Below are positions 23,803 to 48,457 of a stretch of DNA of 64,000 nt, piece after piece (position 1 is the first letter of the stretch; each line of letters begins with the position of its first letter). A program made the position numbers and the translations under genes. The notes under the pieces are model-generated. The model did not search any database. It was not told where the DNA came from and saw nothing but the letters and a program-made list of their open reading frames with translations. Origin of the DNA: Alphaproteobacteria bacterium (GTDB taxonomy: Bacteria > Pseudomonadota > Alphaproteobacteria > MPNO01 > UBA830). The stretch lies in assembly GCA_964291215.2 (NCBI GenBank), contig OZ219791.1:1984001-2048000 (forward strand), in the 5' to 3' direction.

Positions 23803-25045
23803 GGTACTGTAACTTGATGTCTGGAAATTTGTCTGAGGTTTGCGCTTTGAGGCGTTTCACTGGGGGGCTAGCCCCCCAGTGAAACGCGGCGCCATCGTGC
23901 TATCCCATGGAGTTGCAAAACCTTCATGGAGGAAGCGAATGGACCTGCGACACACTACGACGATCGGGACTGTTTTGGAACATCTGATCGCAAACGAAGC
24001 AACGGATCTGGGGCGGGTCTTTGGCCAGCTCTTCGAGCTTGCGATGCAAATCGAGCGCGAGCAGCACTTGAAAGCGGGCCACCGGACGCCGGAGCGACAG
24101 GGCCAACGGCTACAAACGGATCGACACCCCCACTGTTACCATTCAGGTGCCAAAGACGGCCGGTCACGGGGACGATCCGTCCCCAGTCGCTTGAACGCGG
24201 CCAGCGATCTTCTCGCGCCGTCATGCTGGCCGTAGCCGAGATGTACATCAACGGTGTTTCCACGCGGCAGGATGTAATGCGCGAGTTCGGGAGCCTGTCC
24301 TCTTCTCAGGGGGCCACCAGGTTGCTCGATGAAGAACTCGCCGCGCAACCGGCCCCTGATGAAATACCTGATCCTGGATGCGCGCTACGAAAAAGCCCGC
24401 CATGACGGCGTTGTGCGCGATGTTGCAGTGCTCTCGGCCATCGGAATAGGGGCTGCAGGCACGTTCTAGGGCTCTCTGTGGCGCTCTCCGAGGCCGAGGT
24501 CCATTGGAGAGCCTTCCTGGAAAGCTTGCTAGACCTGCATGGTACGACCTTCATCGTCTCGGATGCCGGGCTGAAAGCGGCACGGTGCTGGGCGCGGCGA
24601 CATGGCAGCGCTGCCAATTCCACCTGGCGCAAAACGCCGTGCACCGAACAACGACATCAGGAAACGTATTGGAAAACAGCTCGGAGCCATGCGTCCTCAC
24701 TCCAAACTGCCGAGTCTGAACTGGGCGCCCTCGTGGCCAGCGACAAGCATCCAGGCTTCCTGGCTGGAAAACAATGCGCCCGAGGGGTTCGCTGTCTTCA
24801 CCTTGCCCGATGCTCACCGCAAGCGCATGCGAACCTCGAACGGCATCGAGCGACCGATCCAGCAAGAACTCAAGCGGCGCACCTCCAAAGTCAGGGTCTT
24901 TCCGAACCTCGCCTCGTTGGAGCGCCTCTCAACCGCGGTCCTCATCGACGAAAAATGGGAAACCGAAACCAAGGCATACATCAAATGGGAACAGCTCGAT
25001 GACTGAGAGCTTCACGACAATTTCCAGACATCAGGTTGCGTAATC
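23803..25045 (+). mobile_element. IS256-family element copy 1, transposase broken by micro-deletions
   Basis: Ends GGTACTGTAACTTGATGTCTGGAAATT and AATTTCCAGACATCAGGTTGCGTAATC; fragments EMYINGVSTR, WQRCQFH, RTSNGIER, VFPN in shifting frames. Confidence 0.92.
23852..23887. repeat. Perfect 36-bp palindrome in the IS256 leader
   Basis: GCGTTTCACTGGGGGGCTAGCCCCCCAGTGAAACGC; also intact in copy 3 and split by IS4 in the other two left ends. Confidence 0.95.
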
Positions 25046-25368
25046 CCGAATCGTCCTTCCGATACCCTTCGACTTCGCCGTCCCCTGCGAAACGATTGCG
25101 AAGGATCGACAAGCAGTTCCGGATCACAGCGCCGTGCCTGTCCTTCAAGGCGTCCCGGAACATCCGCGCAGTGCCGTTTTGACCCTTCTCCGCGTGCTCA
25201 ATGTAATAGATCAGGCTATGAGCGTCCTTCCCCTCGTCCGTCCCGCGGCCAAGCGGCACTGCAGCAAGTGATCTTGGTCACCGTCAGGGGCGCCCGAACC
25301 GCTAGCGCCTGGGAGAGCTTCGACCCGTTCAAGGCCGCGGCCGCACAAGACGGCCGTTCACCAAGGTC

Positions 25369-28368
25369 TCAGCGCCGCCTATGCTGCCTGGAACCTGACT
25401 TCTTCGGCTGTCCTTGGGGGCGGGACCGAGCTTGCTTCAGATTGTGCGTGTAGTCGCATCGTGGGTAGTTCGAGCAGCCTAGGAAGCGGCCGAACCGTCC
25501 CATCTTCGTTTCTAGCCAGCCGTCGCAGACCGGACATCCCTCGATCGATCCCCCGCAGTCACGGCACCGGAATGTGCTGCCCGATCTGACCGGCAGCCCG
25601 GTTCCGCACTTCGGACACGATCGTTCCGTGTGCTCGCAATATGGCCAGTTGGAGCAGCCGTAGAAGACATTCCTATGACGCGCGTTTTCTCGGCGTTCCA
25701 GACGTCCCTCCTCGCACTGCGGACATGCAACATCCCCTTCCGGCAAGCGGCCGAACACGGTCACATGTTTCTTGTGGTCGATCAGTTCCGTGACAAACGC
25801 GGACGGGGGGGCGCCCTCGGCGAGCAGGAATACTTGGCGGCGTGCACGGGTCAACGCGACATAGAGCAGGCGTCGCTCCTCGGCATTGGGATACCCTTCG
25901 GGCGCCGCCATTACCAGGTCAAGCAATGGGTCGTCCGCGATCTCAACCGGAAAACCGTACTTGCCGGCGCACAGCCCGAGCACCACCACATAGTCGGCTT
26001 CCAGCCCTTTGGCGCGATGCACGGTCATGTAGCCGAATCGCAGGCCCGGATACTGCTTTGCCAGGCTGTCGAGATTCAGCGGCTGCAAATGCCGGTAGCG
26101 GCCCAGCAGCAGCACCTCCGACATTCCGTCGTGCCTTTGGGCGTCCTCGGCGATCCGGTCGAGGGCTTCCTTTAGTAGTGAGAGCCCTTTGTCGCCTGAA
26201 AGGCCTATATGCACCGCTGGTCGGTCGGCCTCGCGCGTTGCACGGACCGTCTTGCGGATCTGCGCAGGATTGCGCAGCACGAAATCGGTGGCGACCATGG
26301 CGATGCGATCCGCACACCGGAACGTGGTTTCCAGATCGATGCGTTCGAACTCGCCGAATCTCTCCCCGAATTCCCGCATGACGGCGATGTCTGACCCGCC
26401 GAACCGGAAGATCGCCTGCCAGTCGTCCCCCACTGCAAACAGCTGCGATCCCGGAGAGCGGTCGAGCAGCGCCCTTAACAATCGCGCGCGGGCGGGCGAG
26501 ATGTCCTGGAACTCGTCGACCAGAATGTAGCCGAAGGGACTGTGGTAGCGACCGGCCTCTACGTGATCGGTGGCCCGGGCGATCATGTCATGGAAGTCGA
26601 TCTCTTCGTCACGGGCGAGCGTTGCCTGATAACGTTCGAAGATCGGCCCGAACATCTTCAGAAACGCTTCTGCCCGCCCCTCGTCGTCAAGGGAACCAGC
26701 CTGCCGGGCGACCTCCTCCAAGGAACGTTGGCCGCCCTTGAAGTGCTGCAGGAAGGTCGCCAGCAGGCGGATGAATGGGTCGACCCGTCCCTGTTCTTCG
26801 AGGACTGAAAACACCTGTTCCTTTGAAAGCGGCGTCCGCTCCACACCGTGCGCCATCAGCTTTTTCTCAAGGTTCCGGATCAATCGTCCATCAGCGCGTT
26901 CGCGCGTGAAGGTCTCTATCAGGACGGTGTCTCGTTCGGTATGGACCTGCCGCTTCCACTCCATTTCCTCGAGGTATTTCTCTCGGTCAACGAACGGCGC
27001 CGTATTTCCCTCGGCGTCGAGCCCGAAGTGCTCGATATAGATACCGTGGTCCGGAAGATAGAAGTCGGGCTTGTACTGGCGCTTCTCGGCTGTCGCGGTA
27101 TCGTGCTCGTAGGATGCCTCGTACTCGTAGGCGATGCCGTTGAGATAGAGGAAGTTCGCAATTTCGCATTCCTCGTAGCTCTTCACCTTGTCACCCTTCA
27201 GCGAACGGATGTCATTCCGACGGATGTAGTTCCAGTACGCGCCCCAGTTTGGGAACTCGTGCGTGCTCTTGTAGGGCGCGAACTGATCCTGGAACCATTC
27301 CAGCATGGTCTCCGAAAGGTCGCCGCCAGCCAGCAAATCAGCGACGATGCCCTTGAGCACATCGAACAGCATCCGGTCGTTTTCCGCCGACCGGGCCAGC
27401 GCCGGACGCTTGCCTTCGGCCTCGCCGATGATCGCCATGCCTAGGCTGTGGAAAGTTCGAATCGTTACGTCGCGGGCGGTTACGGTGCCGAGCCGTCTAC
27501 CGACGCGTTCCTCCATTTCGTTCCGGGCGTCCCGTGCAAAGGCGAGCAACAGGAGCTCGGACGGCTTCCGATACCCTCTCTGGACCAGCCAGCCCGCTTT
27601 CGCCACGATGACCGAGGTCTTGCCGCTTCCCGCTGCGGCGACCACCAGATTGCGCCGCTCGTCGACGACTACCGCTCTGCGTTGTTCGTCCGTGAGCGGC
27701 CTGACCTCGATCCGGTTGAACAGGTCGCGCGACCGGACTAGCTCATTCGCGATGAATGCCTCGTTGGCCCTTGATCTGGCATTGTCCGGCGCTTCCAGGA
27801 ACTCCAGCATGGCCCTCAGTATCCGGATCTCCGGGGTGTCGGACAGGGCATCCGGCCAGTGTCCGGCTACGCCGCCGGCCACCGCCTGCGCATCCTGCAC
27901 AAGATCGTGGATGGTGTTGGAATGGACATATCCCGGTGGATCGGCAATTTGGACCAACCGGCCGTGGACGGAGCGAAGCGCACCAATCTGGGGTCCCAGC
28001 GTACTGCGCCACCATTCGATCCTCGCGGTCTCAATCGCATCCGCCAGCGCATCGGCTTCGCTTCGGGCAAGCCCCGACACGGTTATCCCGGCCGTTGCAC
28101 TGCCCAGGCTGACGCCGCTCCAGCGCCTGCCAACCTTCAGCCGGACCGATTCGATGTCCCGTAGGGCGATTTTCCTCGAGTGCAACGCGAAAGCGACCGT
28201 GACGTTGTCGGCGTTCACCGTCGCGGCCCCGGCGCTCCCCGGACGAAACACTGTGAACAGCAACGAGGTCAGTCCGGTCCGCTTCACGCAGAACCGCGAG
28301 CTTGGACTGGCCACTTCTCTGGAGGTGCTGTGCACCTCTAATCCTGCAAGTTTCGTCACTTCTGCCAT
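25369..28368 (-). CDS. UvrD-family helicase (helicase IV/HelD-like) with C-terminal topoisomerase-type Zn ribbons
   Basis: AAAGSGKT, ILVDEFQD, AVGDDWQAIFRF, TVHRAKGLE, EERRLLYVALTRAR; FYGCSNWPYC and FLGCSNYPRC. Confidence 0.9.
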   Translation of the reverse strand: MAEVTKLAGLEVHSTSREVASPSSRFCVKRTGLTSLLFTVFRPGSAGAATVNADNVTVAFALHSRKIALRDIESVRLKVGRRWSGVSLGSATAGITVSGLARSEADALADAIETARIEWWRSTLGPQIGALRSVHGRLVQIADPPGYVHSNTIHDLVQDAQAVAGGVAGHWPDALSDTPEIRILRAMLEFLEAPDNARSRANEAFIANELVRSRDLFNRIEVRPLTDEQRRAVVVDERRNLVVAAAGSGKTSVIVAKAGWLVQRGYRKPSELLLLAFARDARNEMEERVGRRLGTVTARDVTIRTFHSLGMAIIGEAEGKRPALARSAENDRMLFDVLKGIVADLLAGGDLSETMLEWFQDQFAPYKSTHEFPNWGAYWNYIRRNDIRSLKGDKVKSYEECEIANFLYLNGIAYEYEASYEHDTATAEKRQYKPDFYLPDHGIYIEHFGLDAEGNTAPFVDREKYLEEMEWKRQVHTERDTVLIETFTRERADGRLIRNLEKKLMAHGVERTPLSKEQVFSVLEEQGRVDPFIRLLATFLQHFKGGQRSLEEVARQAGSLDDEGRAEAFLKMFGPIFERYQATLARDEEIDFHDMIARATDHVEAGRYHSPFGYILVDEFQDISPARARLLRALLDRSPGSQLFAVGDDWQAIFRFGGSDIAVMREFGERFGEFERIDLETTFRCADRIAMVATDFVLRNPAQIRKTVRATREADRPAVHIGLSGDKGLSLLKEALDRIAEDAQRHDGMSEVLLLGRYRHLQPLNLDSLAKQYPGLRFGYMTVHRAKGLEADYVVVLGLCAGKYGFPVEIADDPLLDLVMAAPEGYPNAEERRLLYVALTRARRQVFLLAEGAPPSAFVTELIDHKKHVTVFGRLPEGDVACPQCEEGRLERRENARHRNVFYGCSNWPYCEHTERSCPKCGTGLPVRSGSTFRCRDCGGSIEGCPVCDGWLETKMGRFGRFLGCSNYPRCDYTHNLKQARSRPQGQPKKSGSRQHRRR

Positions 28369-29229
28369 TCATTTCGACGATGTCATAATCGACGCCAACA
28401 TCACGGAATATACTACACCTTGATATAGAGCACGGATTTTACTGGTTGTTCTTGGCTTCCTGCAAATCAAACCCCTTTCCAGATACCGTTCCCGAGACCG
28501 GAACGATTCGAAATAGGGCGTAGCCGGCTCGCGCCTGCCGATAAACGGTCCGTCGCGCGGAGGGCATCACGGCAAGTGTTCCGCCAGACCGTGGAGAAGG
28601 CAATCCTCGCGTCAGCACAGTTGCACGCATGCCCGATCCGTGTCGCTTGGATTCTATCGGTTGAGGTCGGTATAGTTCATTTCAGCAGAACGCAAGCCTT
28701 TCCGCTGGTTCGGAGACTACGACCTGGTGTTATGTCAGCAATGATATGTCGCACATTTGGTGCTAGACTGTCCGTCCATTCGGGATGGAGGTCGGAGTAT
28801 GAAACGCTACGTGGTGACCCTGGACGAACGGGCAGAACTTTCGGAGATCACGACCAAGGGCTCGCATCTGTCGCAAAAGGTAATCAACGCCTTGATCTTG
28901 CTCAACTGCGACGAGGGTGCGTTCAATGAATGCCAGATGACCGGGAAGGTCATTGCCGAGATTCTGCGCATCAGCATGCGCAAAGTAGACCGGGTGAAAA
29001 AGCGTTTCGTTGAAGAGGGGCTGGAGGCGGCATTGGGTGGCCGGTAAGGACGCCGTCCTACCTACATGCGAAAAGCCGACGGCACCTTCGAGGCGCGCTT
29101 GGTGGCTCTGAGTTGTGGTGAACCGCCTGAGGGTTACGCGCAATGGTCGTTGCGGCTGCTGGCCGACCGCGTTGTTGAGCTTGGTTACATTGATACCGTG
29201 TCACACGAGACGGTGCGGCGTGTTCTAAA

Positions 29230-30909
29230 CCGAAGTTCCAGAAAATTCCGGTTGAAATGCACGTCAAGTCATTGATGCAGCGTGGTTTATCAGATTTTTC
29301 GTGCGTCATATTGTACCCATGTAATATTGTGTTAGATGCTTGACATCCATGGATTTTCCGCCCATATTCAGTAGCCATGTATATCGAATCCATCCCCAAC
29401 CGCTCGTCCCCGCCCGCCATCCTGCTCCGCGAGTCCTGTCGCGAAGCCGGAACGGTCAAGAAGCGCACCCTCGCCAACCTTTCCAAGCCCGCTCTCATCG
29501 AGGGATTGCGCATTCTGCTCAAGGGAGGAACCGCAGGTCTCGACGACGCCTCGTCCGCTCTCTCTTCCCCATGTCGCCGCGGTGCTGGGAACCCTGAAGA
29601 AACTGGACCGGCGGATCGACCCGAAGCCTTCTCCCGAGCGCGATCAGGTTTTCGCCATGATCGTGGCACGCATCCTTGAGCCCGCCTCGAAGCTGGCCAG
29701 GGGGCTGGCGACAGCGGTCAGCGCCTTGGGTGAGATGCGGAGTTGGACGAGAATGCCCTCTACGGCTCCTGGAACGTCAGGAGAGGATCCCCTGGCGGCA
29801 CCTCGAAGAGGGCTGCCTGGTGCTCCTGACTTCCGTGTGGATGGAGGGGAGAGCATGCCCCTTGGCCCAACGGGGTCATTCCCGGGATGGCAAGAAGGGC
29901 AAGCTGCAGTCGGCCTTCTGTGCGACCGGGACGGGTGTCGGTGCGGGTGTTCCCCGGCAACACCCGGCCACGGTGTCCTCACAGATCGCCACGCTGCGGG
30001 AGCGGTTCTCCTTTGCGAAGGTGGTGGGGGACCGAGGCCCGCGAGGAGGTCAAGCCTGCGGGCCAGCGCCTTGAGGGGCATCCGTTCACTGGTGGAGGCG
30101 GGTGACGATGTCGCTCTTCGACGAGAGAGACCTGGTGGAGATCACCAGCGATGTGTATCCCGGCGAACGCCTCTGCCGCAACCCCCTGCTGGATCGGGCT
30201 CGCAAGCGCCAGGAACTGCTCGAGGCCACCGAGGCTCGCACCGATTGCCGCAGCGACACGGCGCGACAAGCGCCGGGAAGATCGGGGAGCGGAAGGTCAT
30301 CGGCAGGATGGCGAAGCACTTCACGTGGTCCATCGACGACGACGGTGTCTTCACCTGTGGGCGTGATGAGGCTGCGATCGCTGCCGAGGCCAGGCTCCTC
30401 TATGTGGTCCGCCTGCCGCAGAGCGAGCTCGACGGTCCCGCGCGCCTACAAGCGGCTGAACTCCGTGGAACGGGCCTTCCGCAGCCTCAAGGACCTGAAG
30501 GTCCGTCCCGTCTACCCGAACCCCGAGTCCGCGTCTTCCTGTGTATGCTCGCCTACTACATGGCACATGCGACTGAAGCCCATGCTGTTCGACGACGAGG
30601 ATGCCGAAGGCGGCCGTCCGTCGTGGCGCCGGCAGAAGTCTCGGCGAGCGCCCGGGCCAAGGCGACAACGAAGAGGACGCCCGGAGGTGGCACAGCTTCC
30701 GCACCCTCATCGGCGATCTTGCCACCCGCAACACCGTGGCGCCCCGCCTTGCGGGCGCCGAACCCTTCCAGGTCACCACACGGCCCACGCCGCTCCAGAG
30801 AAGGGCACTCAAGCTCCTGGGCGTGAAGCCATAGTGTACCGAGACCGCTGAAATGTATCGAATGTCATTTCTATCAGATACTTAGGTCTGATCGGCTCTG
30901 GAACTTCGG
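29230..30909 (+). mobile_element. IS1634-family element with heavily eroded transposase
   Basis: Perfect 13-bp IRs CCGAAGTTCCAGA/TCTGGAACTTCGG; TSD TCTAAA; MYIESIPNRSSPPAILLRES, YKRLNSVERAFRSLK, PTPLQRRALKLLGV. Confidence 0.9.
29340..29368 (+). promoter_or_regulatory. Putative sigma70 promoter of the IS1634 transposase
   Basis: TTGACA-17 bp-CATATT just upstream of ATG 29377. Confidence 0.5.
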
Positions 30910-31825
30910 TCTAAAAAAACTGCCTCAAGCCATGGCAGCGGGTTGGGTGGGTGATTCCTCCTCAAGGGAACGCCGACTTCGCCGCAGCGAAGGTGCTCGA
31001 TCGCCGCCCCGTCGCCTTCCCCGTGGTCTGCATGGATGAAACGCCCCCCGACCGGCGAGACACGGCAACCGATCGCCATGGCGCCGGGACGGGCGTAACG
31101 ACTACGAGTATCGACGTTGCGGCACCTGCAACGTCTTCATGGAACCCCTGGCCGGCAAGCGCATGACCAAGGTAACCGAGCGCAAGATCGCGCAGTTCCT
31201 GGCCGACATCGCCGAGCGCTACTAAGATGCCACCACCATCACCCTGGTGATGGACAACCTCAACACTCACCGGCCCGGCGCCTTCTATGAGGCCTACCCG
31301 CCGGACGAGGCCAAGGCCCTGTGGGACCGTTTCGAGTTCGTCTACACCCCCAAGCACGGCAGTTGGCTGAACGTGGTCGAACTCAACGTCATGATCCGCC
31401 AGTGCCTGAACCGCCGCATCGACTGCATCGAGGTGTTACGCCGGGAAGTTGCCGCCTGGCAGGCGACCGCATTCAGGCCAAGGTGGATTGGCAGTTCACC
31501 ACCGACGATGCCCGCGTGAAACTCAAACGTCTTTATCCGATATTTGACGAATGACAAGACACTAGTGCGGCTCCGCTGAGTGGGGCTGAGGTATGCAGCG
31601 CCGACCGGGAACTGTAAAGTCCGCCCCGGCGCAGTGCAAAGCGGGTCGTTGCCGAAATGCGCCGCCGGGTGCGTTTTGAGGGGCCGTCTCGACAGCCGCC
31701 TGTTTTGTCCCCGCAGGAGAATAGCCCGGTACTGGCGGCTTATAGCAGGCCGTCCGCGTTGGCCCTTGGTCCAAGACAGCATAATTCGATAGAATCGTGG
31801 CCGTTATCGAACCGGAGGCGTCGGA

Positions 31826-32083
31826 ATGAGCACAAGCATCGTCGTCCGCGACATCGACCCCGGAGACAAGTCCTGGCTGCGGCGCGAGGCCCGGCAGGCC
31901 GGGGTGTCGATGGAAGAACTGGTGCGCCGCCTGATCCGCGAAACGCGCGCGAAGCGCGAACGCCGGTTGAAACCGTCCGAAACCTTCGCGCGGTATTTCG
32001 GGGAGGAGCACGGCGTCGAGCTTCCGCCGCCGGCCCGCCTCGATTACAGGCCGCTGTCGTACTCCGGAGCGAAGGAGGAATGA
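31826..32083 (+). CDS. FitA/VapB-like ribbon-helix-helix antitoxin
   Basis: MSTSIVVRDID...GVSMEELVRRLI...GVELPPP; ATGA overlap with PIN gene. Confidence 0.75.
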   Translation: MSTSIVVRDIDPGDKSWLRREARQAGVSMEELVRRLIRETRAKRERRLKPSETFARYFGEEHGVELPPPARLDYRPLSYSGAKEE

Positions 32084-32526
32084 CGGTTCGGCTTGCATGG
32101 CTGGTCGACGCGAATACGGTCTCCGAAATGATGCGGCCGCGGCCCGACCCGAAGGTCGCTTCCTTTCTCGATTCCGTCGCCGACGAGGGGCTGGGCATCG
32201 CGTCCGTCACAGTCTGGGAGATTCTCAACGGCATCGGCTGGCTCGATTCCGGCCGGCGTCGCCGCGAACTCGCCGAACGGTTCCGCGACCTTCTCGACGA
32301 CCTGTCCGAGGACCGGATCGTCGCGTGGTCTGCGGCGCAGGCCTGCGCGCGGATCATGGAGGACAAGCGCCGCCGGCGCGGCGAACCGCTGGACGACCAT
32401 GTTCCGGACGCCTTCCTCGCCGCTGCGGCGGCCGTGCGCGGCCTTGTCATCGTGACCCGCAACCGGGCGGAATTCCGGAACACCGGCGTCGAAACCGTGG
32501 ATCCCTGGACCGGGTGCCGGTCTTGA
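32080..32526 (+). CDS. PIN-domain (VapC/FitB) toxin
   Basis: WLVDANTVSEMMRPRPD, DAFLAAAA..RGLVIVTRN..EF, VDPW. Confidence 0.85.
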   Translation: MTVRLAWLVDANTVSEMMRPRPDPKVASFLDSVADEGLGIASVTVWEILNGIGWLDSGRRRRELAERFRDLLDDLSEDRIVAWSAAQACARIMEDKRRRRGEPLDDHVPDAFLAAAAAVRGLVIVTRNRAEFRNTGVETVDPWTGCRS

Positions 32527-32603
32527 GCTTCGCACTGGACGCCGGGTCCTGTTGTCGCTGCCGACGCCCCGACCCGCATATGCGAACCACATGAGATTCC
32601 GCC

Positions 32604-32924
32604 CATGACCATGGACAGCCAATCCGCCCCCGATGCCGAACGCCGGGTTTCCGACGCCCTGGCGGAGATTGAGTAAATGAGCCAGCGCCAGACCGATGGC
32701 AAATGGCTGGAATGTCTGACGCGCGACTGCGCGCCGCTGATCGCCGAGTGGGATATCAGCGACACCTGGCTCTGGCAGGATTGGCCCGACCGGGAGTCGC
32801 CGGACATCGGGATCGATGTCGTCGCCAGACGGGCAAGCGACGGCAGGCTGATCGCCGTTCAGTGCAAGTCCAGGAAGCTGGACGAACATGGGCGCGGCAC
32901 GGACATCGCAAAGAAGGAACTCGA
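32604..32924 (+). pseudogene. N-terminal Mrr-like nuclease fragment of a restriction-modification/helicase (Type ISP-like) gene
   Basis: WLWQDWPDR..PDIGIDVVA...IAVQCK; early in-frame stop; cut off by the IS at 32925. Confidence 0.6.
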
Positions 32925-35900
32925 GTATCTACTCACCCCTAGTTGGGTTCTGATTGGTCGTAGTGCTAGTTGATGATGTCTGCGGCTTTTCCGTCGAGGG
33001 CGATCTGGGTTGCGACGAGTGGGTTGTAGCCGAGTGCCGCCATGGAGGTGAGGTAGCTTGAGCCCCGGCACCATGCTTTTGCGTGGAGCGGAAGCATCCG
33101 GACACCTTGACCTTCTGTTCTCCGGCATTGTTGGTGAAGCTGACGTTGGGTGCGCCAGGCAAACTGGTGGAATGTGGCCGGGTGCAAGTCCCGAGAGAGG
33201 CTAATTTCTCCGTGAACCATGCGTCGCCAGGCGAAGCGTTGGGGAGCGGCAGGCTATTGAGCCACGAGATGCTTTGAAACCGGAGTGCCGAGGTCGTGGC
33301 CGAAGGCAACGAGCCGCGTTGGTGAGGCGAACGGGGGCTCCGCGGGGTCCGAGAACCAGGGCACGCGCCGAAGCAGGGACCTGGGAGGTCTTGCCCCTCT
33401 GTCGTGGAGGGGCCGCAGAGGAAAGGGACTAATCCGTAAACCGATGATGAACGAGAAGTCAGATTCGGCCATAGTACCGCTGAAGGCGGCGAACAAGGGT
33501 TCTTCGGAGCCTGCGGAGTTGTTGGAGGGAAGGGCAATGCGGTTGGCCCGCGCCGCGCGCAGAAGCGGGGGTCACAGGCGGCTGAACGCAGGTAGCGAAG
33601 AGGAACCCGGAAGAGCGTCTTTACTCCACCACGTGACGGTCGACGTTCTGCACGATGCGTTCCATTCCTTGAGGAAGGACGCGGCGGCGGGGCGTTGTGT
33701 GGCAAGCGTACGCGGAGGGTGTGGAACTGCCTGCACGCCCGTGTGCACAGGGGTGCGTACCGGGCGCCTCCAGGGTTTACATACCCAAGGAGGGGCAACG
33801 ACCGCTTGCCTCGGACAAGATTCTTCAGCGGGCGGTGTGATTCTGGTGCCGCGAGACGGAGTTCCTCGGGTGTAGTTACGGCTTCCGGCCGGGGCGCATC
33901 ATGCGCCGTCACGGTGGAACGGCGGAAGGTCAACTGGATCGTTGACGCCCCTTCGACAACCGCGACCATCTGGTCGCGATGCTCACGGATCGGGGGGTCT
34001 GATCATCAAGTGACGCCGGCGTCATGGAAGGGACCGACTGGCAAGGGAACACCGCAAGGGGCGGCGCCATGCCTTGCGAACCTGCACTACGTACGACTGG
34101 TTCCAGAACCACTGGCGCAAGCGGATGGCTGGAGGCGACACGATCATTATGCGGACGACTTCGTGTGCGGCTTTCAGCATCTGGGCGGCGCTGAGACCTT
34201 GGGGAGAGACTGGCCCACTTGAACTGCACCCGGAAAATCATCGAGTTCGGTCGGTTTGCCAGAGCGAACCGCCGGAAGCGTGGGCAAGACGTTCGACTTC
34301 CTCGGCATGACGCACTTCTGCGAACAGACGAGGAAAGGCAGGTTCAGGGTCGGTCCATCTCGCAAACGGGCACCCTGCGGCGGATCAAGGAGGCCTTGCG
34401 CATGCGGTGGCACGATAACCGGCACGAAACGGCCAAGTGGTGAGTTATCAACGGCTGCTACTACGCCGTTCCAGGAAGCAGCCTGCAGAAGTTCATACAC
34501 CAATGCAAACAGCTGCGTGCCCTTCGGCGACGCTCCCAAAAGGACTTCACCGGGGACATAGACACCCTCACCGCTGCCCACTGAGCCAGCATCCGCCACC
34601 CGTGGCCAAACCAGCGCCTTGTCGTCAGGGGAGGAGCGAACAGCGCACGTCCGGTTCTGTGCGGGGGGCAACCCGGTTCCCTACCGCGATGGTCGTCTGT
34701 GAAGTGCAGGTTTTCGTGTTTCACGAGACGTTCGTGCAGGTTGTGCGCGTCGGACTTGCGTCCATGTTTTCCTTTCGGCGGCGGCGGGATGTCGGGCAGT
34801 TCCCTGGTGCCCTGATGGTGCGGTAGCGCTTGTGCACGGCCCGGCGGTCAGCCTCGTTCAGGGTTTTTGGATGCGCTCTTGTTGACCTTGTGGCAGGGAG
34901 CAGGCTCTTCATCAGTCGCGCGGTAGCCTCGACGACAAAGGTCAGTTCGCGCAGCAGGTGGCTACCACACAACTGGTGGCTACACTGGCCCATGTACGAG
35001 GCCCAGGACGCCCTTGTAACACGGGCCGATCTCTTGCTTGCGGTGCGGGAACTTGCACGTCAGGGTCCCACGACATGGAGCCACTTGCTGTTGATCCGAA
35101 ATCGTCGACATCGGGCGTTGCAGGAGGTGCGCCACGGCGGCCTCCTCCCATGACGCATCGTGAAAGCATAGCTGAGGCCTCGGAGAGCTTGATGCCGGAG
35201 ATCGCCTGCACGAACGCGACGGCGCAGGGACAGCATCTGGGCGACCAGCAGGTTGATGACGAGGGCCTGAATGCCGATGCCGTACTGCACGGGATGTTGT
35301 CGGGGAACCGGCCCTTGCACTTCGGGCATTCCTTGATCTCGGCGCGGCGCTCGACGACCTCGAACACGATGTCGTGCGGCGCTCCCGATCGACGGGGCCG
35401 TCGATGTCAGCGCCGCAGGCGTCGCAGGCCGCGACCGTCTCCTCGACGATGGTCTTGCGCAGGTTGTCGCCCATCTGCCGGTTCGGCTTCGGGCCGTTGC
35501 TCCCGGCACGCTCTTGTCCGTCTGTGACGGCGGCAGACCGGAGTTCCGGCTCGTGCGTAGTCTTCTCCAGAAGGACGACGATGAGGATGTCGAGCAGGAT
35601 GACGAAGACGCGGATCACGGCCTCTTCCGCCACCTTGCCGGCAGCGCCGCGGTCTTGGCCGCTTCGAACTCCTCGCGCGCCGCCCGTCGCCATCACCCGG
35701 CCTTGCGCTTCATCAGCGCGCCGCCTCCGAGATGCGTTTCCACATACAGATCATGCGGGGGCTGGAGCCCCGGAAGCAGCTGGCACAGCCCGCTCGTCGC
35801 CTTCGATCCAAAGTAGCCCACTGGCGGTCCCCTCGATGACCACCACTAAACGAATCGGCCTGCAGTGTCAAATCTCCACGTAAACCCGTTCGTTACTCTA

Positions 35901-35938
35901 CCCCGACATCAAGCCGGAACCAGGGGGTGAGCAGTTAC
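32925..35938 (-). mobile_element. IS66-family (single-ORF, ISBst12-like) element, eroded, carrying a group II intron
   Basis: IRs GTATCTACTCACCCCT and GTAACTGCTCACCCCC; HQLCGSHLLREL, FTNNAGE, KVSGCFRS fragments; no TSD between outer flanks. Confidence 0.8.
33150..34690 (+). mobile_element. Group II intron with degraded reverse transcriptase/maturase
   Basis: 5' GTGCG; 3' DV/DVI-like GAGGAGC...CACGTCCGGTTCTGTGCGGGGGGCAACCCGGTTCCCTACCGCGAT; GTPQG and YADDFV; removal restores D-D-P-N-V in the host transposase. Confidence 0.9.
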
Positions 35939-37465: not shown

Positions 37466-38518
<1,053 letters not shown>

Positions 38519-38580
38519 CAAGATCCACGCCTCGCCAAAAATCCACCGACCGACAGCACCTCACGCCACGACCAAACAAA

Positions 38581-39306: not shown

Positions 39307-39329
39307 CTTCTCCAAGAGGTTGGTGAGCG

Positions 39330-39515
39330 CGGGCGATTTTTTATTTGCGGCCATCGCCGCGGCGATAACAGCGCCGACCCTCTCCGCCGCCTCGACGAGA
39401 TGGGTATCGGCGAGGTGGGCGTAACCTGCCGTCGTGCGATGCCGCCGGTGGCCGAAAAGCTTTCCCACGAGCGGCAGGTTTTCGCCCGCCATGATGGCGT
39501 GACTCGCCGGGTGTT
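39330..39515 (-). pseudogene. Tyrosine integrase C-terminal remnant
   Basis: ASHAIMAGENLPLVGKLFGHRRHRTTAGYAHL (LGH...T..Y motif); boundaries approximate. Confidence 0.75.
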
Positions 39516-40248
39516 CCCGGCCTCGGAGTGGAATATCGAGATGTTCCGGCGGCCGCCGCTGGAGCCGACCCGCGCCTGCCGGCGCCGGAAGGGAGCGCTG
39601 CTCGGCCACCTGGCAACCGGGTTCGCGATCCGGAAGGGCATCGCCTATGAGCGCCACGCCGATCTGGAGGCGCCGGGCGGCAGCTTCCAGCGCCGGGGCA
39701 TGGATATCACGGTCAGGGCAGCCGGGGGCAGGGGTTCCGCCTGCTCGCGGTGCATCTGAAGAGCGGCTGCTGGGGCGCGAAGCAGGACGGGGCAAACAGC
39801 AAACAGAAGACCTGCGGGACGCTCCGGCCCAGAACGCAGGGCTCGGGGCCCGGGTCGACAGGCGTTTGGCCGAATCCGCTCCCTTCGTCAACCTGGGGGA
39901 CTTCCACCGCCGTCTGGTGCTGCCGGGAGACTGGGCCTGGGCGGCGCTGTCGCCGCCCTCGTCCCCGCTGCTGCTGCTGACGTAGGGCAAGCCCTTCGCC
40001 TGCGGCCGCTACCGGGCCTATATCGACCACTTGGTCGCCGGCGGCGGCGCCCAAGCGCTGCTGGTCGGGGGCTCGTTCCGCCAATGGCCGCACCTGGGGC
40101 CTCATCCCGACCACTGCGCCGTATCGGCGATCTTCCGGGCTGGCCGGTAGGCTGGTCCGCGAAAATATCCCGGGAAGCACGAGTGCAGGACCGGCTGCCG
40201 TTCGTAGCGGTGTCCGGCGGGTAGGGCCGGAACGCTCAGGCCCTTACA

Positions 40249-41796
40249 CTACGTGTAGCCGGCCGCTTTGCGCCAGGATTCGCAATTGCCGATGTAGGCA
40301 CCGAACATCCGGCGCCCGTTGAAAAGCACCGCGTTGTTCGGTCTCCAACCGCAAAGCAGAAGCTCCGAAGCACCGTAGATGAACTGTAGAGTTTTCGCGA
40401 AGAAACACACCGCGTCAAGGTCGGCGTAGTCGATGCCGGCGGGTCCCGTCCTGTTTGATCCATGCGTATGGTAGTTGCGGCACCTGACGGCATGGGCGAC
40501 ATCGCTCTTCAAGTGCTTGAGGGCCTCCTCTTCGAAATGTTCGAGGACAATGTCCGCACGGGCTTCCACACACTGGCGAAGCGGGCCGTTCCTGCTGATT
40601 CGCGCCAGCGCGTTCACAACGGCCTCCCGCTGTTCGCTGTGGGGACAAGCTTTCGCCTTTGATAGGGCGTCCTCGACAATGTTCAGAAGAGCTTCTGGCA
40701 GCGGCTGCCGCGGCGGCTTGTCGACCTCGGGCAGCAAATCGAAAGCATTCGCGGCCGTTACGATTTCAGCTTCGAGAGCGATGTTGCTGGGGGTTCCCGG
40801 CAAACAGCCGAAGAACTGATCGTTGGCTCTCTTCCGGGCCGGATCGGCATCCCGCTCCAGCCACTGCTGCATCACCGAGATGAAGCGGTCCGGATACCGG
40901 GCGGCATCGATCGCGCCAGCGTTCATCCTGGTATATCCGCTTTTCTCGGGATCCCACCCGGTTTTGCTTTCGTTCGGACCGAAGACCAGGAGTTCGCAAA
41001 CAGCCTGCAGTTCGTCTTCCGGGTCCGACATGACGAAGACCTTCACGTCCCGCCAGCGCGGCGCATATCCCATCATCCACGCAAAGAAGTGGCGGACCCG
41101 CCGCATTTTTTTCCATGCTTCGCCGATCGTGACCGGCGTCTCGCCGAATGCGATCGAAATACGTGGCTCTTCTACGTTAGAAGGCGAAATTCCGTCCGAT
41201 TTCACGGACCCGACGATGCTCACGGTACCCAGAACGGTTTCGAATTCCGGCAGGTAGCGCCATTCGCCCGTGAAATAAGCCACCATCGCCTGGCCTTTCG
41301 TCAATTCGCGTTTCTGGTATTCCGGCTTCGTCCTGTTGATGGCATCGAGGACGGACTGGTCCGGGTTACGAAGACGGACGAAGTGCCCGGCAGCATTGTT
41401 CGGGAACACGGATCCGGCCGCTCCCTCCAGCGTGAATTCGATCTCCCTGATGGAGGCATCGTCCGCGGCAAGGCGCCTGGGCCCGAAAAGGGCGTACCTG
41501 AACGGGATGTCGCCATATTGTATCCGACGGAAGTCGAATATCTGGTTCGGGGGACCTCCACGGATGCAGTCGATCAGCGAAACGTCCCCGGCCGGCGAGA
41601 AGCCGAACATTGACTCGTCGCTCTCCACCCTGACCCCCCCCCCATCGTCGACGACGCCGAGAACTATATTCCGGAAGTAGTCATCGCGAACGGGATTCAG
41701 TGTCAGGTAACCGAAAACCCGGCTGTTTCTCCCAGATTTGACCTTGTCGAACAGCACCCCGATGGGCCGCTGGAATTTGGCATCGCTGTGGTTCAT
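40249..41796 (-). CDS. ApeA-like HEPN-domain protein
   Basis: C-terminal RNYHTH (R-x4-H), AANAFDLLP, GDVSLIDC in N-terminal region; start set at MNHSDAK. Confidence 0.65.
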   Translation of the reverse strand: MNHSDAKFQRPIGVLFDKVKSGRNSRVFGYLTLNPVRDDYFRNIVLGVVDDGGGVRVESDESMFGFSPAGDVSLIDCIRGGPPNQIFDFRRIQYGDIPFRYALFGPRRLAADDASIREIEFTLEGAAGSVFPNNAAGHFVRLRNPDQSVLDAINRTKPEYQKRELTKGQAMVAYFTGEWRYLPEFETVLGTVSIVGSVKSDGISPSNVEEPRISIAFGETPVTIGEAWKKMRRVRHFFAWMMGYAPRWRDVKVFVMSDPEDELQAVCELLVFGPNESKTGWDPEKSGYTRMNAGAIDAARYPDRFISVMQQWLERDADPARKRANDQFFGCLPGTPSNIALEAEIVTAANAFDLLPEVDKPPRQPLPEALLNIVEDALSKAKACPHSEQREAVVNALARISRNGPLRQCVEARADIVLEHFEEEALKHLKSDVAHAVRCRNYHTHGSNRTGPAGIDYADLDAVCFFAKTLQFIYGASELLLCGWRPNNAVLFNGRRMFGAYIGNCESWRKAAGYT

Positions 41797-41905
41797 TGGG
41801 CGTCTTTCTCCTCGCAGATGCAAGCTGCCACGAATTTCTCCCTCGCCGGGACCCGATCACAGATATATGGGGAAAGCGAGCCGGAACGGCAGATGTTTTT
41901 GATTT

Positions 41906-44900
41906 GGTACTGTAACTTGATGTCTGGAAATTTGTCTGAGGTTTGCGCTTTGAGGCGTTTCACTGGGGGGGGGGGGGGGCTAGCCCTCGCATGTCACGGA
42001 AATTTTAGCTGGACAACGGTGTTTCGGCGTGGCATAAGTGTCCCATGTCACAGATCAGCCGCACATTGCGGGACGAGGCAGCAGTTGCGCGGATCGCGTC
42101 GCTGCTGTCCTGTGAGCAGTTCGACAGCCGGTCGGCTCTGGGTCGTCTGCGAGGAGTTTGCCTTTGTCGACGCGCGCGGCCGTCTGCAGCTTGCCGGCTG
42201 CCTGAGGGCGCTGGGCGCCCGGAGATCGTCCTGCCGGCGCCGAAGTCACCGACAATCGACCGCCGGCCTCGCCTGTTGGTATCGCTGCAGAGGTTCCGGC
42301 GCGCGCATTCGGGATCATCGTGGTCGGGGATCGTATTGACCGGGCGGTCACGCTGATTGCGCGTGAACACCCGCGACGACCTTCGCCGGCTGCCAATATC
42401 TCGTGGGCTCGGCGCACGGGTGGCGGGGTTTGCCGCCGCCGCGCGGCGCGGGACCGCTGGATGGAACGACGGGCAGCGCCGGGGCCACCTGCAGCGGATC
42501 GTCTGTCTGAGCCGTTTCTTGATCAGGTGCTCTGCCCGCCCAGCCATGTGCGCATCCTGCGCCGCGTGACTTCGAGGACCGTTTCGACCATGGCTCAGTT
42601 TTGCCGATGAAGGTTACCCTGCCTGCGCGCGGCCAACTTCCTGTGCAGGACCGAAGGCCGGCAGGATCGGGAGCACTGGGAGACGGTGAAGACGGTCTTC
42701 GTGGCCGAACTGGAGCGCGCAGGAAGCTGGGGAGGTCGATCATGCGCCCTCGCCGGGCGAAGGTCTGAACGACTGGGCGCAGAACGAGTTTGGAGGGGGG
42801 TGACAAGCGACTTTCTGCGCGCCTGGAGCGCCGGCCTTCTGGCGGCCGGTCAGAAGATCAATGCGTCTCCCAGCGCCGACAACACCGCGATCAATGCGTT
42901 TTACCGGATGGTCGCCCTCGGAGATCACGCCGGCGAACATTCTTGCGCCGCACCGGCAGCATCCGTGGCCAGAAGACGGTTCTTGCGGCACGGACCTGAA
43001 CTTCTCCCGGCCTGCAGGTGAGAACCAGACCGGGGCCTCAAGCCTGCACGCGACCCTGGCGGTGACTGACCTGCCACTCGGGGTGCTGGGTCCGGTGAAG
43101 CCCCGGTCGCAGGAGACACGCCGCAGCTCGAGGGGTTCAAGGCGCTGCCACCCCGGCGGCAAGACGCGCGTCATCTCCGTCGGGAAGCCGACATCTTCGA
43201 GCTGTTCGACACGCGCTTGCCCCGCGTCGATCTGCGCGCCAAGCATGACAGGGTGCTGAAGGAGGGAAGGCTGTTCGCCGTCATGGCCGGCGGCCTGATT
43301 GAGATCGAGGGACTGACGGAGCAAGCCAGCCGGAAGAAGGCCCGCGCGACAGAAGCGCCTGGCGAGTTACGGTCCGTCACCCGTGACGGGCACCGCCCCC
43401 AGCGCGAAGCCGGTGTCCCTGCACGGGGTCAGGGAGCGCCCGAGGGTGAGGATCCCGTGGTGCCTGCTGACCACCGTGCGGGTTGGCACTGCGAAGGAGG
43501 CGGCCGACATCGTCGGCTTCTACCTTCAGCGCTGGCGAATCGAGGATTACGTGCTCAAATCCGGATGCAGGGTGGAACACCTGCTGTTCCGCACCGCCTG
43601 CAGCGGGCGATCAACGCCGTCATCGCATGGCGCATCATGGTCATGACCCTGCTCGGCCGCCAGGTGCGAGCCGCAGCTGATGTTCACCGACAGCGAACTC
43701 GCGCGACTACGCACACAAGTACGCCCTGAAGGAACCGGAGCGTCTCGCCGATGCGGTGCACCTGGTCGCCCATCTCGGCGGCTACCGCAGCACGCCCGGG
43801 TCACCAGATCATGTGGCCAGACACACCAGCGCCGCACTGGGTCACCAAATCGGCCGGGAAATCGGGTTCCGGGATGGACAAAGACACGCGTGAACACGTA
43901 AACCATTGTCAACCAGATTTGTCATGACACGGCAGGGCTAGCCCCCCAGTGAAACGCGGCACCATCGTACTATCCCATGGAGTTGGAAAACATTCATGGA
44001 GGAAGCGAATGGACCTGCGACACACTACGACGATCGGGACTGTTTTGGAACATCTGATCGCAAACGGAGCAACGGATCTGGGGCGGGTCTTTGGCCAGCT
44101 CTTCGAGCTTGCGATGCAAATCGAGCGCGAGCAGTACTTGAAAGCGGGCCACCGGAGCGACAGGGCTATGCCAACGGCTACAAACGGATCGACACCCCCA
44201 CTGTTACCGTTCAGGTGCCAAACGGTCACGGGGACGACCCCCCCCCCCCCCCAGTCGCTTGAACGCGGCCAGCGATCTTCTCGCGCCGTAGCCGAGATGT
44301 ACATCAAGGGTGTTTCCACACGGCAGGATGTAATGCGCGAGTTCGGGAGCCTGTCCTCTTCTCAGGTCAGCCGGGCCACCAAGTTGCTCGACGAAGAACT
44401 CGCCGCGCAACCGGCCCCTGATGAAATACCTGGATGCGCGCCATGAAAAAGCCCGCCATGACGGCGTTGTGCGCGATGTCGCAGTGCTCTCGGCCATCGG
44501 AATAGGGGCTGCAGGCACGTTCCGGGGCTCTCTGTGGCGCTCTCCGAGGCCGAGGTCCATTGGAGAGCCTTCCTGGAAAGCTTGCTAGCCCTGCATGGTA
44601 CGACCTTCATCGTCTCGGATGCCGGGCTGAAAGCGGCACGGTGCTGGGCGCGGCGACATGGCAGCGCTGCCAGTTCCACCTGGCACAAAACGCCGTGCAC
44701 CGAACAACGACATCAGGAAACGTATTGGAAAACAGCTCGGAGCCACGCCTCCTCACTCCAAACCGCCGAGGCTGAACTGGCCGCCCTCGTGGCCAGCGAC
44801 AAGCATCCAGGCTTCCTGGCTGGAAAACAATGCGGGGCTCGCTGTCTTCACCTTGCCCGATGCTCACCGCAAGCGTATGCGAACCTCGAACGGCATCGAG

Positions 44901-45083
44901 CGACCGATCCAGCAAGAACTCAAGCGGCGCACCTCCAAAGTCAGGGTCTTTCCGAACCTCGCCTCGTTGGAGCGCCTCTCGACCGCAGTCCTCATCGACG
45001 AAAAATGGGAAACCGAAACCAAGATCAAATGGGAACAGCTCGATCAGCTTCACGACAATTTCCAGACATCAGGTTGCGTAATC
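41906..45083 (+). mobile_element. IS256-family copy 2, interrupted in its palindrome by IS4
   Basis: Same ends as copy 1; left end 41906-41985, remainder 43936-45083. Confidence 0.9.
41986..43935 (+). mobile_element. IS4-family (IS50/Tn5-like) element with N-terminal DUF4338-like region, eroded
   Basis: Imperfect IRs CTCGCATGTCACGGAAAT and CTGCCGTGTCATGACAAAT; flanked by GGCTAGCC; READIFELF, WCLLTT, YLQRWRIEDY.LKSGCRVE; VCLSRFLIR. Confidence 0.82.
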
Positions 45084-45920
45084 CTCGGGGTGCTGGGTCC
45101 GGTGAAGCCTCGGTCGCAGGAGACACGCCGCAGCTCGAGGGGTTCAAGGCGCTGCCACCCCGGCGGCAAGACGCGCGTCATCTCCGTCGGGAAGCCGACA
45201 TCTTCGAGCTGTTCGACACGCGCTTGCCCCGCGTCGATCTGCGCGCCAAGCATGACAGGGTGCTGAAGGAGGGAAGGCTGTTCGCCGTCATGGCCGGCGG
45301 TGCAGGCCTGATTGAGATCGAGGGACTGACGGAGCAAGCCAGCCGGAAGAAGGCCCGCGCGACAGAAGCGCCTGGCGAGTTACGGTCCGTCACCCGTGAC
45401 GGGCACCGCCCCCAGCGCGAAGCTGGTGTCCCTGCACGGGGTCAGGGAGCGCCCGAGGGTGAGGATCCCGTGGTGCCTGCTGACCACCGTGCGGGTCGGC
45501 GAAGGAGGCGGCCGACATCGTCGGCTTCTACCTTCAGCGCTGGCGAATCGAGGATTACGTGCTCAAATCCGGATGCAGGGTGGAACACCTTCTGTTCCGC
45601 ACCGGCTGCAACGGGCGATCAACGCCGTCATCGCGCATCATGACCCTGCTCGGCCGCCAGGTGCGAGCCGCAGCTGATGTTCACCGACAGCGAACTCGCG
45701 CGACTACGCACACAAGTACGCCCTGAAGGAACCGGAGCGTCTCGCTGATGCGGTGCACCTGGTCGCCCATCTCGGCGGCTACCGCAGCACGCCCGGGTCA
45801 CCAGATCATGTGGCCAGACACACCAGCGCCGCACCGGGTCACAAAATCGGGTTCCGGGATGGACAAAGACACGCGTGAACACGTAAACCATTGTCAACTA
45901 GATTTGTCATGACACGGCAG
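45084..45920 (+). mobile_element. Second, 5'-truncated copy of the IS4 element
   Basis: Near-identical to ~43077-43935; begins directly at the IS256 right end. Confidence 0.9.
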
Positions 45921-45992
45921 GGCTAGCCCCCCCAGTGAAACGCCTCAAAGCGCAAACCTCAGACAAATTTCCAGACATCAAGTTACAGTACC
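45921..45992 (-). mobile_element. Isolated IS256 left end, inverted
   Basis: Reverse complement of GGTACTGTAACTT...CACTGGGGGGGCTAGCC. Confidence 0.9.
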
Positions 45993-46575: not shown

Positions 46576-46592
46576 GGGGGGGGGGGGGCGGT

Positions 46593-47039: not shown

Positions 47040-47192
47040 CCTTCCGGCGAAATTTCGGGTTTGATCTACTCCCGGGGCCTTCGGGTGCTCTGTTTGCAGG
47101 GGGAGGCCTGCCGATTCGCATCGGCACAGGACTCTTTTAACCGAGAATCCAGCGCAACTTGGCCCAATTCCAGCTGCGGGCGGATAACGTTT

Positions 47193-48457
47193 GATTACGC
47201 AACCTGATGTCTGGAAATTGTCGTGAAGCTCTCAGTCATCGAGCTGTTCCCATTTGATGTATGCCTTGGTTTCGGTTTCCCATTTTTCGTCGATGAGGAC
47301 CGCGGTTGAGAGGCGCTCCAACGAGGCGAGGTTCGGAAAGACCCTGACTTTGGAGGTGCGCCGCTTGAGCTCTTGCTGGATCGGCCGCTCTATACCGTTC
47401 GAGGTTCGCATGCGCTTGCGGTGAGCATCGGGCAAGGTGAAGACAGCGAGCCCCGCATTGTTTTCCAGCCAGGAAGCTTGGATGCTTGTCGCGATAGCTG
47501 GCCACGAGGGCGCCCAGTTCAGCCTCGGCGGTTTGGAGTGAGGAGGCGTGGCTCCGAGCTGTTTTCCAATACGTTTCCTGATGTCGTTGTTCGGTGCACG
47601 GCGTTTTGCGCCAGGTGGAACTGGCAGCGCTGCCACGTCGCCGCGCCCAGCACCGTGCCGCTTTCAGCCCGGCATCCGAGACGATGAAGGTCGTACCATG
47701 CAGGGCTAGCAAGCTTTCCAGGAAGGCTCTCCAATGGACCTCGGCCTCGGAGAGCGCCACAGAGAGCCCCAGAACGTGCCTGCAGCCCCTATTCCGATGG
47801 CCGAGAGCACTGCAACATCGCGCACAACGCCGTCATGGCGGGCTTTTTCGTAGCGCGCATCCAGGATCAGGTATTTCATCAGCCCAAGGGGCCGGTTGCG
47901 CGGTGAGTTCTTCGTCGAGCAACCTGGTGGCCCGGCTGACCTGAGAAGAGGACAGGCTCCCGAACTCGCGCATTACATCCTGCCGTGTGGAAACACCCTT
48001 GATGTACATCTCGGCTACGGCCAGCATGACGGCGCGAGAAGATCGCTGGCCGCGTTCAAGCGACTGGGGATAGAACGGGTTGTCCCCGTGACCGGCCGTC
48101 TTTGGCACCTGAACGGTAACAGTGGGGGTGTCGATCCGCTTGTAGCCGTTGGCATAGCCCTGTCGCTCCGGCGTCCGGTGGCCCGCTTTCAAGTACTGCT
48201 CGCGCTCGATTTGCATCGCAAGCTCGAAGAGCTGGCCAAAGACCCGCCCCGGATCCGTTGCTCCGTTTGCGATCAGATGTTCCAAAACAGTCCCGATCGT
48301 CGTAGTGTGTCGCAGGTCCATTCGCTTCCTCCATGAAGGTTTTCCAACTCCATGGGATAGCACGATGGCGCCGCGTTTCACTGGGGGGCTAGCCCCCCAG
48401 TGAAACGCCTCAAAGCGCAAACCTCAGACAAATTTCCAGACATCAAGTTACAGTACC
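47193..48457 (-). mobile_element. IS256-family copy 3 with 8-bp TSD
   Basis: Both ends present; TAACGTTT at 47185-47192 and 48458-48465; transposase frameshifted. Confidence 0.95.

Follow-up and report, generated by a model that had tools for sequence, protein, structure and literature searches.

The window analysed here is a stretch of 64,000 nucleotides (G000:C2:1984001-2048000) from an alphaproteobacterial genome, G000, which has 6.15 Mb in two contigs (C1 and C2) and a single 16S gene that matches Tistrella, Skermanella and Ensifer entries at about 88.5% identity. Between 23.8 and 48.5 kb of the window lies a nest of mobile elements: three copies of an IS256-family insertion sequence (IS), an IS630-family element into which an IS1634-type element has inserted, an IS66-type element interrupted by a group II intron, and an IS4-type element that is partly duplicated. 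A first-pass annotation of the window had noticed that these elements are riddled with short gaps of nearly uniform size, and had suggested an analogue of fungal repeat-induced point mutation (RIP) aimed at transposons. Is the pattern real, is it confined to transposons, and what might produce it?

The elements of the nest were compared with their genome-wide families, and the sites where other copies have 4-14 extra bases were counted as missing segments. IS256 copy 1 (23803-25045, forward strand; Pfam Transposase_mut fragments) is dead and lacks 22 short segments (4-11 bp) present in other copies. Copy 2 has its left end (41906-41970, forward) cut off by the IS4-type insertion from its body (43928-45083, forward; 25 missing segments), and copy 3 (47193-48457, reverse; Pfam fragments) lacks 18. 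The IS630-family element (28724-31565, forward; HTH_29 and DDE_3 fragments) is interrupted at 29230-30909 and lacks 1 + 7 segments. The interrupting element (29230-30909, forward) has terminal inverted repeats and a 6-bp direct repeat, and lacks 39 segments in 1.7 kb; its fragments gave no Pfam match, and we take it to be IS1634-type from the first-pass annotation and general knowledge of the family. The element at 32925-35938 (reverse), presumably IS66-type from a familiar end motif plus 8-bp target duplications, belongs to a family of about 180 partial or full genome copies; it is split by the intron and lacks 1 + 45 segments, the 45 being in the 1.25 kb of its right part. The intron itself (33115-34690, forward; Rfam RF02005 at 33185-33357) is dead, has about 60 copies and lacks 47 segments in 1.6 kb. 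The element at 41974-43947 (forward), assumed to be IS4-type from its Y-x2-R-x3-E motif, has 12-14 copies which are only about 0.4% diverged, yet carry 13-24 deletions each; 24 segments in 2.0 kb are missing here, and 9 from the 3' part that forms the partial second copy (45084-45932, forward). Repeat comparison also revealed an inverted IS256 left end (45928-45992, reverse). For the cargo stretches 37491-41900 and 31571-32913 the genome offers no second copy, which places them outside the copy comparison.

All eleven IS256 gaps named in the first-pass annotation were recovered by copy alignment, at 24103 and 24180 (5 bp each), 24310, 24357 and 24739 (6 bp each) in copy 1, and at 44156 (7 bp), 44222 (6 bp), 44289 (12 bp), 44432, 44833 and 45023 (6 bp each) in copy 2. 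The two IS4-type copies do differ by gaps, although the lengths are 6, 5, 11 (readable as 5+6) and 12. The other elements of the window are riddled as was claimed, but the gap count given was too low, since most gaps are common to all copies in the window.

How general are these gaps? By self-comparison of the genome, 1.90 Mb (31%) of G000 is covered by at least two other copies. Among 1171 distinct clean indel events between repeat copies, 777 are 5-7 bp long; the numbers by length are 14 (4 bp), 174 (5 bp), 371 (6 bp), 232 (7 bp) and 48 (8 bp), with a second bump at 11-14 bp that fits double events. The narrow mode, which goes far beyond what chance would give, is thus 5-7 bp and not the 5-6 bp first noted. 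There are 29 family fragments with at least 20 copies; 28 of them have 3.8-27.4 deletions per kb per copy while one has 0.3, and the loss in the median copy amounts to 8.7% of the length. Among 77 near-full IS256 copies, 25 deletion sites recur, with frequencies of 17-99%, and each copy carries 7-27 deletions. When the long alleles were restored by script, a single 415-codon frame was obtained. Two metagenomic relatives (81% and 88% DNA identity) serve as outgroups; aligned over all 1356 bp of the restored reference, each shows a single 1-bp gap and has the long allele at every one of the 25 sites. Therefore all 25 are deletions, none is an insertion, and none is fixed. As the first-pass annotation had seen, element ends and target duplications survive. 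In eight elements the first deletion site is 32-230 bp from the left end and the last is 74-283 bp from the right end, and the 8-bp target duplications of the IS66-type family still match in 93 of 120 copies.

Could ordinary pseudogene decay, by slippage or microhomology-mediated end joining, give such a spectrum? Microhomology of at least 2 bp accompanies about 44% of the events against 21% for random deletions, which is in its favour. However, microhomology is 0-1 bp in 56% of the events and 0 in 29% of those of 5-7 bp (50% for random deletions), so that it is only modestly raised where the first-pass annotation had stressed it. Deletions of 5 and 7 bp far exceed those of 3, 4 and 9 bp, whereas the sizes of bacterial pseudogene deletions are reported to follow a power law with an excess of multiples of three (PMC6054270). 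Moreover, 66 disrupted single-copy genes of G000 show only 0.15 events per kb. The size spectrum contradicts ordinary decay, which was already doubted in the first-pass annotation and which we consider extremely improbable.

A second explanation is a repeat-specific artefact of sequencing, amplification or consensus building. Contigs of three public runs contain the long as well as the deleted alleles, at high depth, though all three runs come from one study with unrecorded library type. One of them, run X3, is a different strain (about 2% different, with 55 differences in 2768 bp of flank), whose contig spans the locus 23790-25046 without IS256 copy 1. The IS630/IS1634-type joint at 29227-30913 also occurs in contigs of public runs, and at 30491 and 30559 the long alleles are seen in relatives from other runs. 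Runs X4 and X5, of two other studies, hold only distant, intact relatives, and homopolymer lengths vary among copies; both points would suit an artefact. Stronger evidence comes from reading frames. Across 538 kb in 545 intact single-copy genes, set against the sister species G001 (93% identical) in a two-genome comparison with no third outgroup for polarity, G000 is the shorter one in 30 cases of 6 bp, one of 5 bp and none of 7 bp. G001 is the shorter one by 6 bp twice, and 3-bp gaps number 9 and 9. Similarly, among the distinct gaps of a multicopy host adhesin with fibronectin repeats, 28 are of 6 bp and 5 are of 5 or 7 bp (p=2e-5). The excess of 6 bp in genes indicates filtering by reading frame, which an artefact would ignore.

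Some repeats of the same genome are clean. An IS66 family (G000:C1:2537327-2538715) with 11-14 copies, 0.3% divergence and 14 open 463-aa frames has no 5-7-bp gaps; it is probably the newest invader and so a natural time-zero control. One duplicated pair is identical over 1166 bp. Other genomes are also nearly free of the pattern. In IS-rich stretches of 400 kb each, three other IS-rich long-contig alphaproteobacterial genomes have 0.01, 0.01 and 0.22 gaps per kb of aligned repeat, while a like sample of G000 has 7.6. In a genome of the same order, IS256 gives more than 25 near-identical matches over the full length, of which only one has an internal stop. The repeats of G001 itself offer three pairs only, its assembly being of short contigs. 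Taken together, an artefact is very unlikely, and we are highly confident that the pattern is real. As a separate observation, the repeats of another alphaproteobacterium (G067, L288-L307) show 7 distinct 7-bp indels against 1-3 at neighbouring sizes, a small bump with too few events for a call.

The signature is genome-wide and lineage-specific, but repeats carry about 100 times more of it, whether they are mobile or not. In non-coding single-copy DNA, 31 events were counted in 67.5 kb (0.46 per kb), and the 66 disrupted genes have 12 events in 80.6 kb. This pseudogene control draws on 1.11 Mb of the 5.0-Mb sister genome and has its limits, as its genes look young and only partly relaxed (second-position share 0.165 vs 0.121). 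The check on single-copy pseudogenes, which could have overturned the earlier claim, thus gave a roughly 100-fold lower density, and the concentration in multicopy DNA is strong. Among repeat copies diverged by 1-4%, gaps per 100 substitutions rise from 5.5 (two copies) to 11 (up to 9 copies), 19 (up to 33) and 33 (more than 128), not strictly monotonically. The figure for single-copy DNA is 0.26 (96 gaps per 36,509 substitutions), and that for two- to three-copy repeats is 3.4 (113 gaps in 101 kb), unevenly spread, with between 0 and 2 gaps in most pairs and a great many in a few. One two-copy group II intron has 14 and more than 30 deletions relative to an intact homolog, nearly nested. A comparison of 5-7-bp with 1-bp events is not relied on because it is biased: the disrupted class is partly defined by 1-bp shifts, and the repeat count omits homopolymers. 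Is the process aimed at transposons, as had been supposed? The bias to multicopy DNA agrees with this, but single-copy genes and the multicopy host adhesin share the signature, filtered to in-frame 6 bp.

It had also been supposed that each copy was cut and end-joined independently. This does not hold, since at most sites nearly all deleted copies share an identical junction; most gaps must have been copied between copies, or inherited. Which of the two is it? In IS256, the deletion haplotypes of 75 of 77 copies are distinct, linkage is lost beyond 25 bp, and 87-97% of deletion pairs farther apart than that violate the four-gamete rule. Distinct haplotypes together with the kept target duplications point to patches rather than crossovers, and the mosaic alleles without exchange of flanks are what is seen in ectopic gene conversion. 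Across 17 element sets, the squared correlation r2 beyond 30 bp is 0.05-0.09 for deletions and 0.14-0.21 for single-nucleotide polymorphisms (SNPs). In 8 of the 17 sets, the closest 5% of copy pairs are nearly alike in SNP markers, with no more than 4% differing, whereas 17-40% of their deletion sites differ. Deletions are the more homoplastic of the two.

Patch size can be judged from four element sets, each with two SNP subfamilies. They share 86 deletion sites between subfamilies and have 85 private ones. Around shared deletions the subfamily SNPs are kept at distances down to 2-6 bp; at two sites the bases present in undeleted copies are not the same in the two subfamilies, and at two sites a SNP 2-3 bp away moves with the deletion. 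The private deletions often lie on a diagnostic SNP, and many private sites are in locally identical sequence, which argues against fixed hot spots determined by sequence. Diversity within 10 bp is 0.025 on deleted haplotypes against 0.041, the reduction being limited to about 30 bp and gone by 40 bp. The frequencies are skewed as well: 33 of the 5-7-bp deletions are singletons and 292 are at 10% or more, whereas 1806 SNPs are singletons and 623 reach that level. For polarised IS256 sites, the derived frequency is at least 50% in 18 of 25 deletions and in 17 of 46 SNPs (p=0.006). From these comparisons we infer that each deletion may have arisen once and then been copied exactly, in patches that reach from a few to about 20 bases on either side, with a bias to loss.

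The inheritance alternative supposes that non-autonomous master copies, already heavily deleted, were multiplied in trans by intact transposases, so that high frequencies reflect master ancestry and the shuffling is unbiased recombination. The spared ends of the eight elements fit it, and so do the near-intact copies in some families, the least deleted IS256 copies, which carry only the commonest deletions, and the deletion counts per copy, which are overdispersed (standard deviation 4.0 vs 2.3). Yet masters should also lift derived SNPs to high frequency, and most of these SNPs are rare. Many deletion sites differ between copies that have one SNP haplotype in common, and the masters would still need a source of about 20 deletions per kb. 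We judge this scenario improbable.

What could make deletions of 5-7 bp? The lengths 174/371/232 fit a symmetric two-ended cut (binomial, chi-square p=0.29), and the lengths 165:348:215 fit 5 bp plus two independent extra bases (p=0.53). A weak palindromic preference, G-n-Y-S-R-n-C, is centred in the deleted bases around one central G/C base; the symmetric motif has a log-likelihood of 0.39 per event against 0.09-0.11 in matched random controls. The 65 single-copy events lean the same way (motif score -0.01 vs -0.19 for the control, standard error 0.08). No flanking motif was found within 14 bp of the deletions, that is, no protospacer-adjacent or transposon-adjacent motif at a fixed distance from the cut. 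Hairpin context was rejected, as the folding energy equals that of random positions. A mismatch-centred cut or a deamination hot spot at the deletion centres found no support either. Nor does breaking of homology seem to be the purpose, since the longest identical run falls only from 158 to 125 bp. To match the deletion motif with the target site of a resident transposase, element ends were located automatically, which gave clear 8-10 bp target duplications in some families and none for many others.

We lean towards a reading in two steps, a lineage-specific source of deletions followed by deletion-favouring, very short-patch copying between repeats, possibly as a by-product of normal repair. 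The simplest account of the lengths, the motif and the modest microhomology would be a two-ended staggered cut by a dimeric enzyme. A symmetric double-strand cut would span a 5-bp core plus 0-1 base per end, and the short ends would be lost; a dimeric nuclease or an aborted integrase-type cut is a candidate, with the ends then trimmed and joined without Ku. Such a two-ended symmetric cut geometry is known from Mu-type integrases and EndoMS. Deletions may already arise more often in repeats. When copies pair, a loop of 5-7 nt would be too large for MutS and would mostly be resolved by loss, while neighbouring point mismatches would be corrected back to the recipient or lie outside the patch. 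Bulges of more than 3 nt escape mismatch repair (PMC5416779). With mutS and mutL intact, unrepaired loops above 3 nt would account for the freer movement of this size class compared with SNPs. Deletions might in this way ratchet through a family until there is one per 25-65 bp, about 9% of each copy is lost and the transposase is dead. If the patches are very short and without crossover, ends and target duplications would survive.

Several points weigh against this reading. SNPs in large families are shuffled too (IS256 SNP-SNP r2 0.02-0.04 beyond 25 bp), so mismatch repair does not completely block SNP transfer. A loop can in E. coli be repaired together with a mismatch close by, and this would make the MutS filter weaker. 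None of the IS256 deletions is fixed, the best being at 76 of 77 copies, and the deletion load does not rise with private SNPs (pooled rho -0.11), so that a tie to copy age was rejected. The direction of copying is inferred from the frequency spectrum and not observed. The heavily deleted two-copy intron could be explained by copying only if there were more copies earlier or in other strains, and the 11-14-copy IS66 family at 0.3% divergence is free of gaps. The motif score is unrelated to frequency (rho 0.02), and the deletion centres show no excess polymorphism. Finally, no enzyme was found for either step, in a genome whose proteins were not scanned wholesale.

There is a further possibility, that a dedicated surveillance system recognises multicopy or mobile DNA by homology pairing or by small guides derived from that DNA and cuts it, that the break is repaired from an already-deleted copy, and that single-copy events are off-targets. 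Such a system would be a genuine bacterial equivalent of RIP. In support, two- to three-copy repeats carry 3.4 gaps per 100 substitutions against 0.26 in single-copy DNA, the two-copy intron has many deletions, the trait is limited to this lineage, and the spacing of 5-7-bp deletions is mildly regular (excess at 20-30 bp; coefficient of variation 0.86 vs 0.98). The enzyme searches speak against it. No Ku, ATP-dependent ligase of the LigD type or NucS was found in G000, and hence no Ku/LigD end joining; no TnpB passed the cut-off. No Piwi-domain Argonaute (PF02171) was found in 41 genomes including G000, short or divergent Argonautes and unknown nucleases being outside the searches. None of 112 CRISPR spacers matches a repeat beyond chance-level matches of 14-25 nt, though lost spacers are possible. 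The hits in the host adhesin family are a further objection. We regard such surveillance as possible but unlikely.

The first-pass annotation had seen no responsible gene, and this extends from the window to the genome in the searches run. Of its candidates, Ku/LigD, Argonaute and TnpB were not found, and a loss of mutS or mutL is contradicted by intact genes; recA, addA, recJ and xseA are intact too. Its model of staggered cutting, trimming and joining stands in so far as the size class is narrow and symmetric, but not as independent events per copy, nor with Ku or LigD. Rpn/YhgA nucleases have 12 matches at 10 places in G000, three in tandem at G000:C2:1147910-1151563; they are not distinctive, as all four congeners also have 2-16.

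Other systems were met along the way. An intact type II Cas9 (1046 aa) with cas1 and cas2 lies about 20 kb away (L121:5982-10438), beside a 17-repeat array (G000:C2:2068487-2069579), one spacer of which shares 17 nt with a spacer of the second array. The second array (L122, G000:C1:574173-581216) has 97 repeats and no cas gene among 10 open reading frames in 14 kb, on one side only. At L117, L118 and L113 there are multicopy reading frames that join a Druantia DruA-like domain to DDE_Tnp_1-associated transposase domains, with one 586-aa copy intact. In the window, 25369-28368 encodes an intact 999-aa UvrD-like helicase with C-terminal topoisomerase zinc ribbons, sitting between IS copies. The single-copy, lower-GC stretch 37550-41823 is a possible candidate defence island; it holds two adjacent DEDDh 3'-5' exonucleases, both matching PADLOC PDC-S48 and one with a weak BRCT match, and an Apea-like HEPN protein. 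As to the IS256 copies, their left end forms a perfect hairpin around CTAG (23852-23887, 41973-42011, 43922-43957 and 48373-48408), and many copies genome-wide are interrupted exactly there by other elements, IS4-type among them. This hairpin is a recurrent insertion target with unstable G/C runs. The region 41906-45992 is a composite bounded by inverted IS256 left ends and enclosing the partial IS4-type duplicate, possibly a product of intramolecular transposition or inversion.

Is it then a defence? The anti-transposon effect is real, but may be a by-product of normal recombination and repair and need not be an evolved defence. The reading that we favour and the surveillance one overlap in the case of a homology-dependent repeat-induced deletion, in which a lineage-specific nuclease would make symmetric 5-7-bp deletions mainly in repeats and the deleted allele would be written into sister copies a few bases at a time. 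Any IS or group II intron family that has been resident for long would then be driven to extinction of its activity, whatever its type. We consider this plausible, a little short of probable. If true, it would be the first prokaryotic functional counterpart of RIP, with a gene-drive-like spread of small deletions within one genome. To our knowledge, no general sequence-independent in-place destruction of multicopy DNA is known in bacteria, the usual view being that dead IS copies decay randomly or are lost in one piece. Here is a new mutational signature, about 100-fold concentrated in repeats and absent from the 93%-identical sister species and the other IS-rich genomes tested. This leaves a narrow comparison in which to look for the enzyme. 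If deletion-biased conversion blind to mismatch repair is at work, the long-standing question of how IS expansions halt in host-restricted or low-population bacteria becomes testable, and an enzyme that makes defined 5-7-bp deletions without Ku would be interesting as a technical tool.

No description of this pattern was met in the literature searched, subscription journals being mostly outside its cover, but several known systems resemble it in part. Gene conversion reportedly homogenises IS copies in Wolbachia, as the title of Cordaux 2009 has it. NucS/EndoMS cuts with a 5-nt stagger, and RIP depends on a methyltransferase of the RID/DIM-2 type in the sexual stage. Bacterial pseudogenes and alternative end joining, so far as PMC6054270 describes them, share the lack of Ku, the deletion excess and some microhomology, but show a power law in place of a sharp 5-7-bp peak concentrated about 100-fold in repeats. 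Wolbachia likewise has many nonfunctional IS copies with exchange among them, but the degradation outlined in PMC3205602 is by general substitutions and deletions, while here it is a narrow class nearly free of flanking SNPs and skewed to high frequency. NucS/EndoMS makes a symmetric double cut around one base pair with very short patches, as might be the case here; however, this genome has no NucS hit, PMC11551744 reports that repaired sites have no indels, and our deletion centres have no polymorphism excess. Oligonucleotide recombination with MutS-blind bulges (PMC5416779) also transfers bulges of more than 3 nt in short patches, which matches the lower edge of the peak; it is a laboratory method, and leaves the upper edge at 7-8 bp and the origin of the deletions unexplained. 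The closest likeness had been drawn to fungal RIP, and it is one of outcome, failing in the type of lesion and in the independence of copies. RIP changes C to T after methylation, scatters independently in each copy and takes place in a sexual cycle. In G000 the lesions are 5-7-bp deletions common to copies, C>T changes show no marked context bias against background, and there is no sexual cycle, no dedicated gene known and a faint single-copy background. As with RIP and methylation induced premeiotically (MIP) in the general account given by PMC8918686, the damage is concentrated in repeats of any kind and rises with copy number, transposons are inactivated, and multicopy genes of the host are hit along with them.

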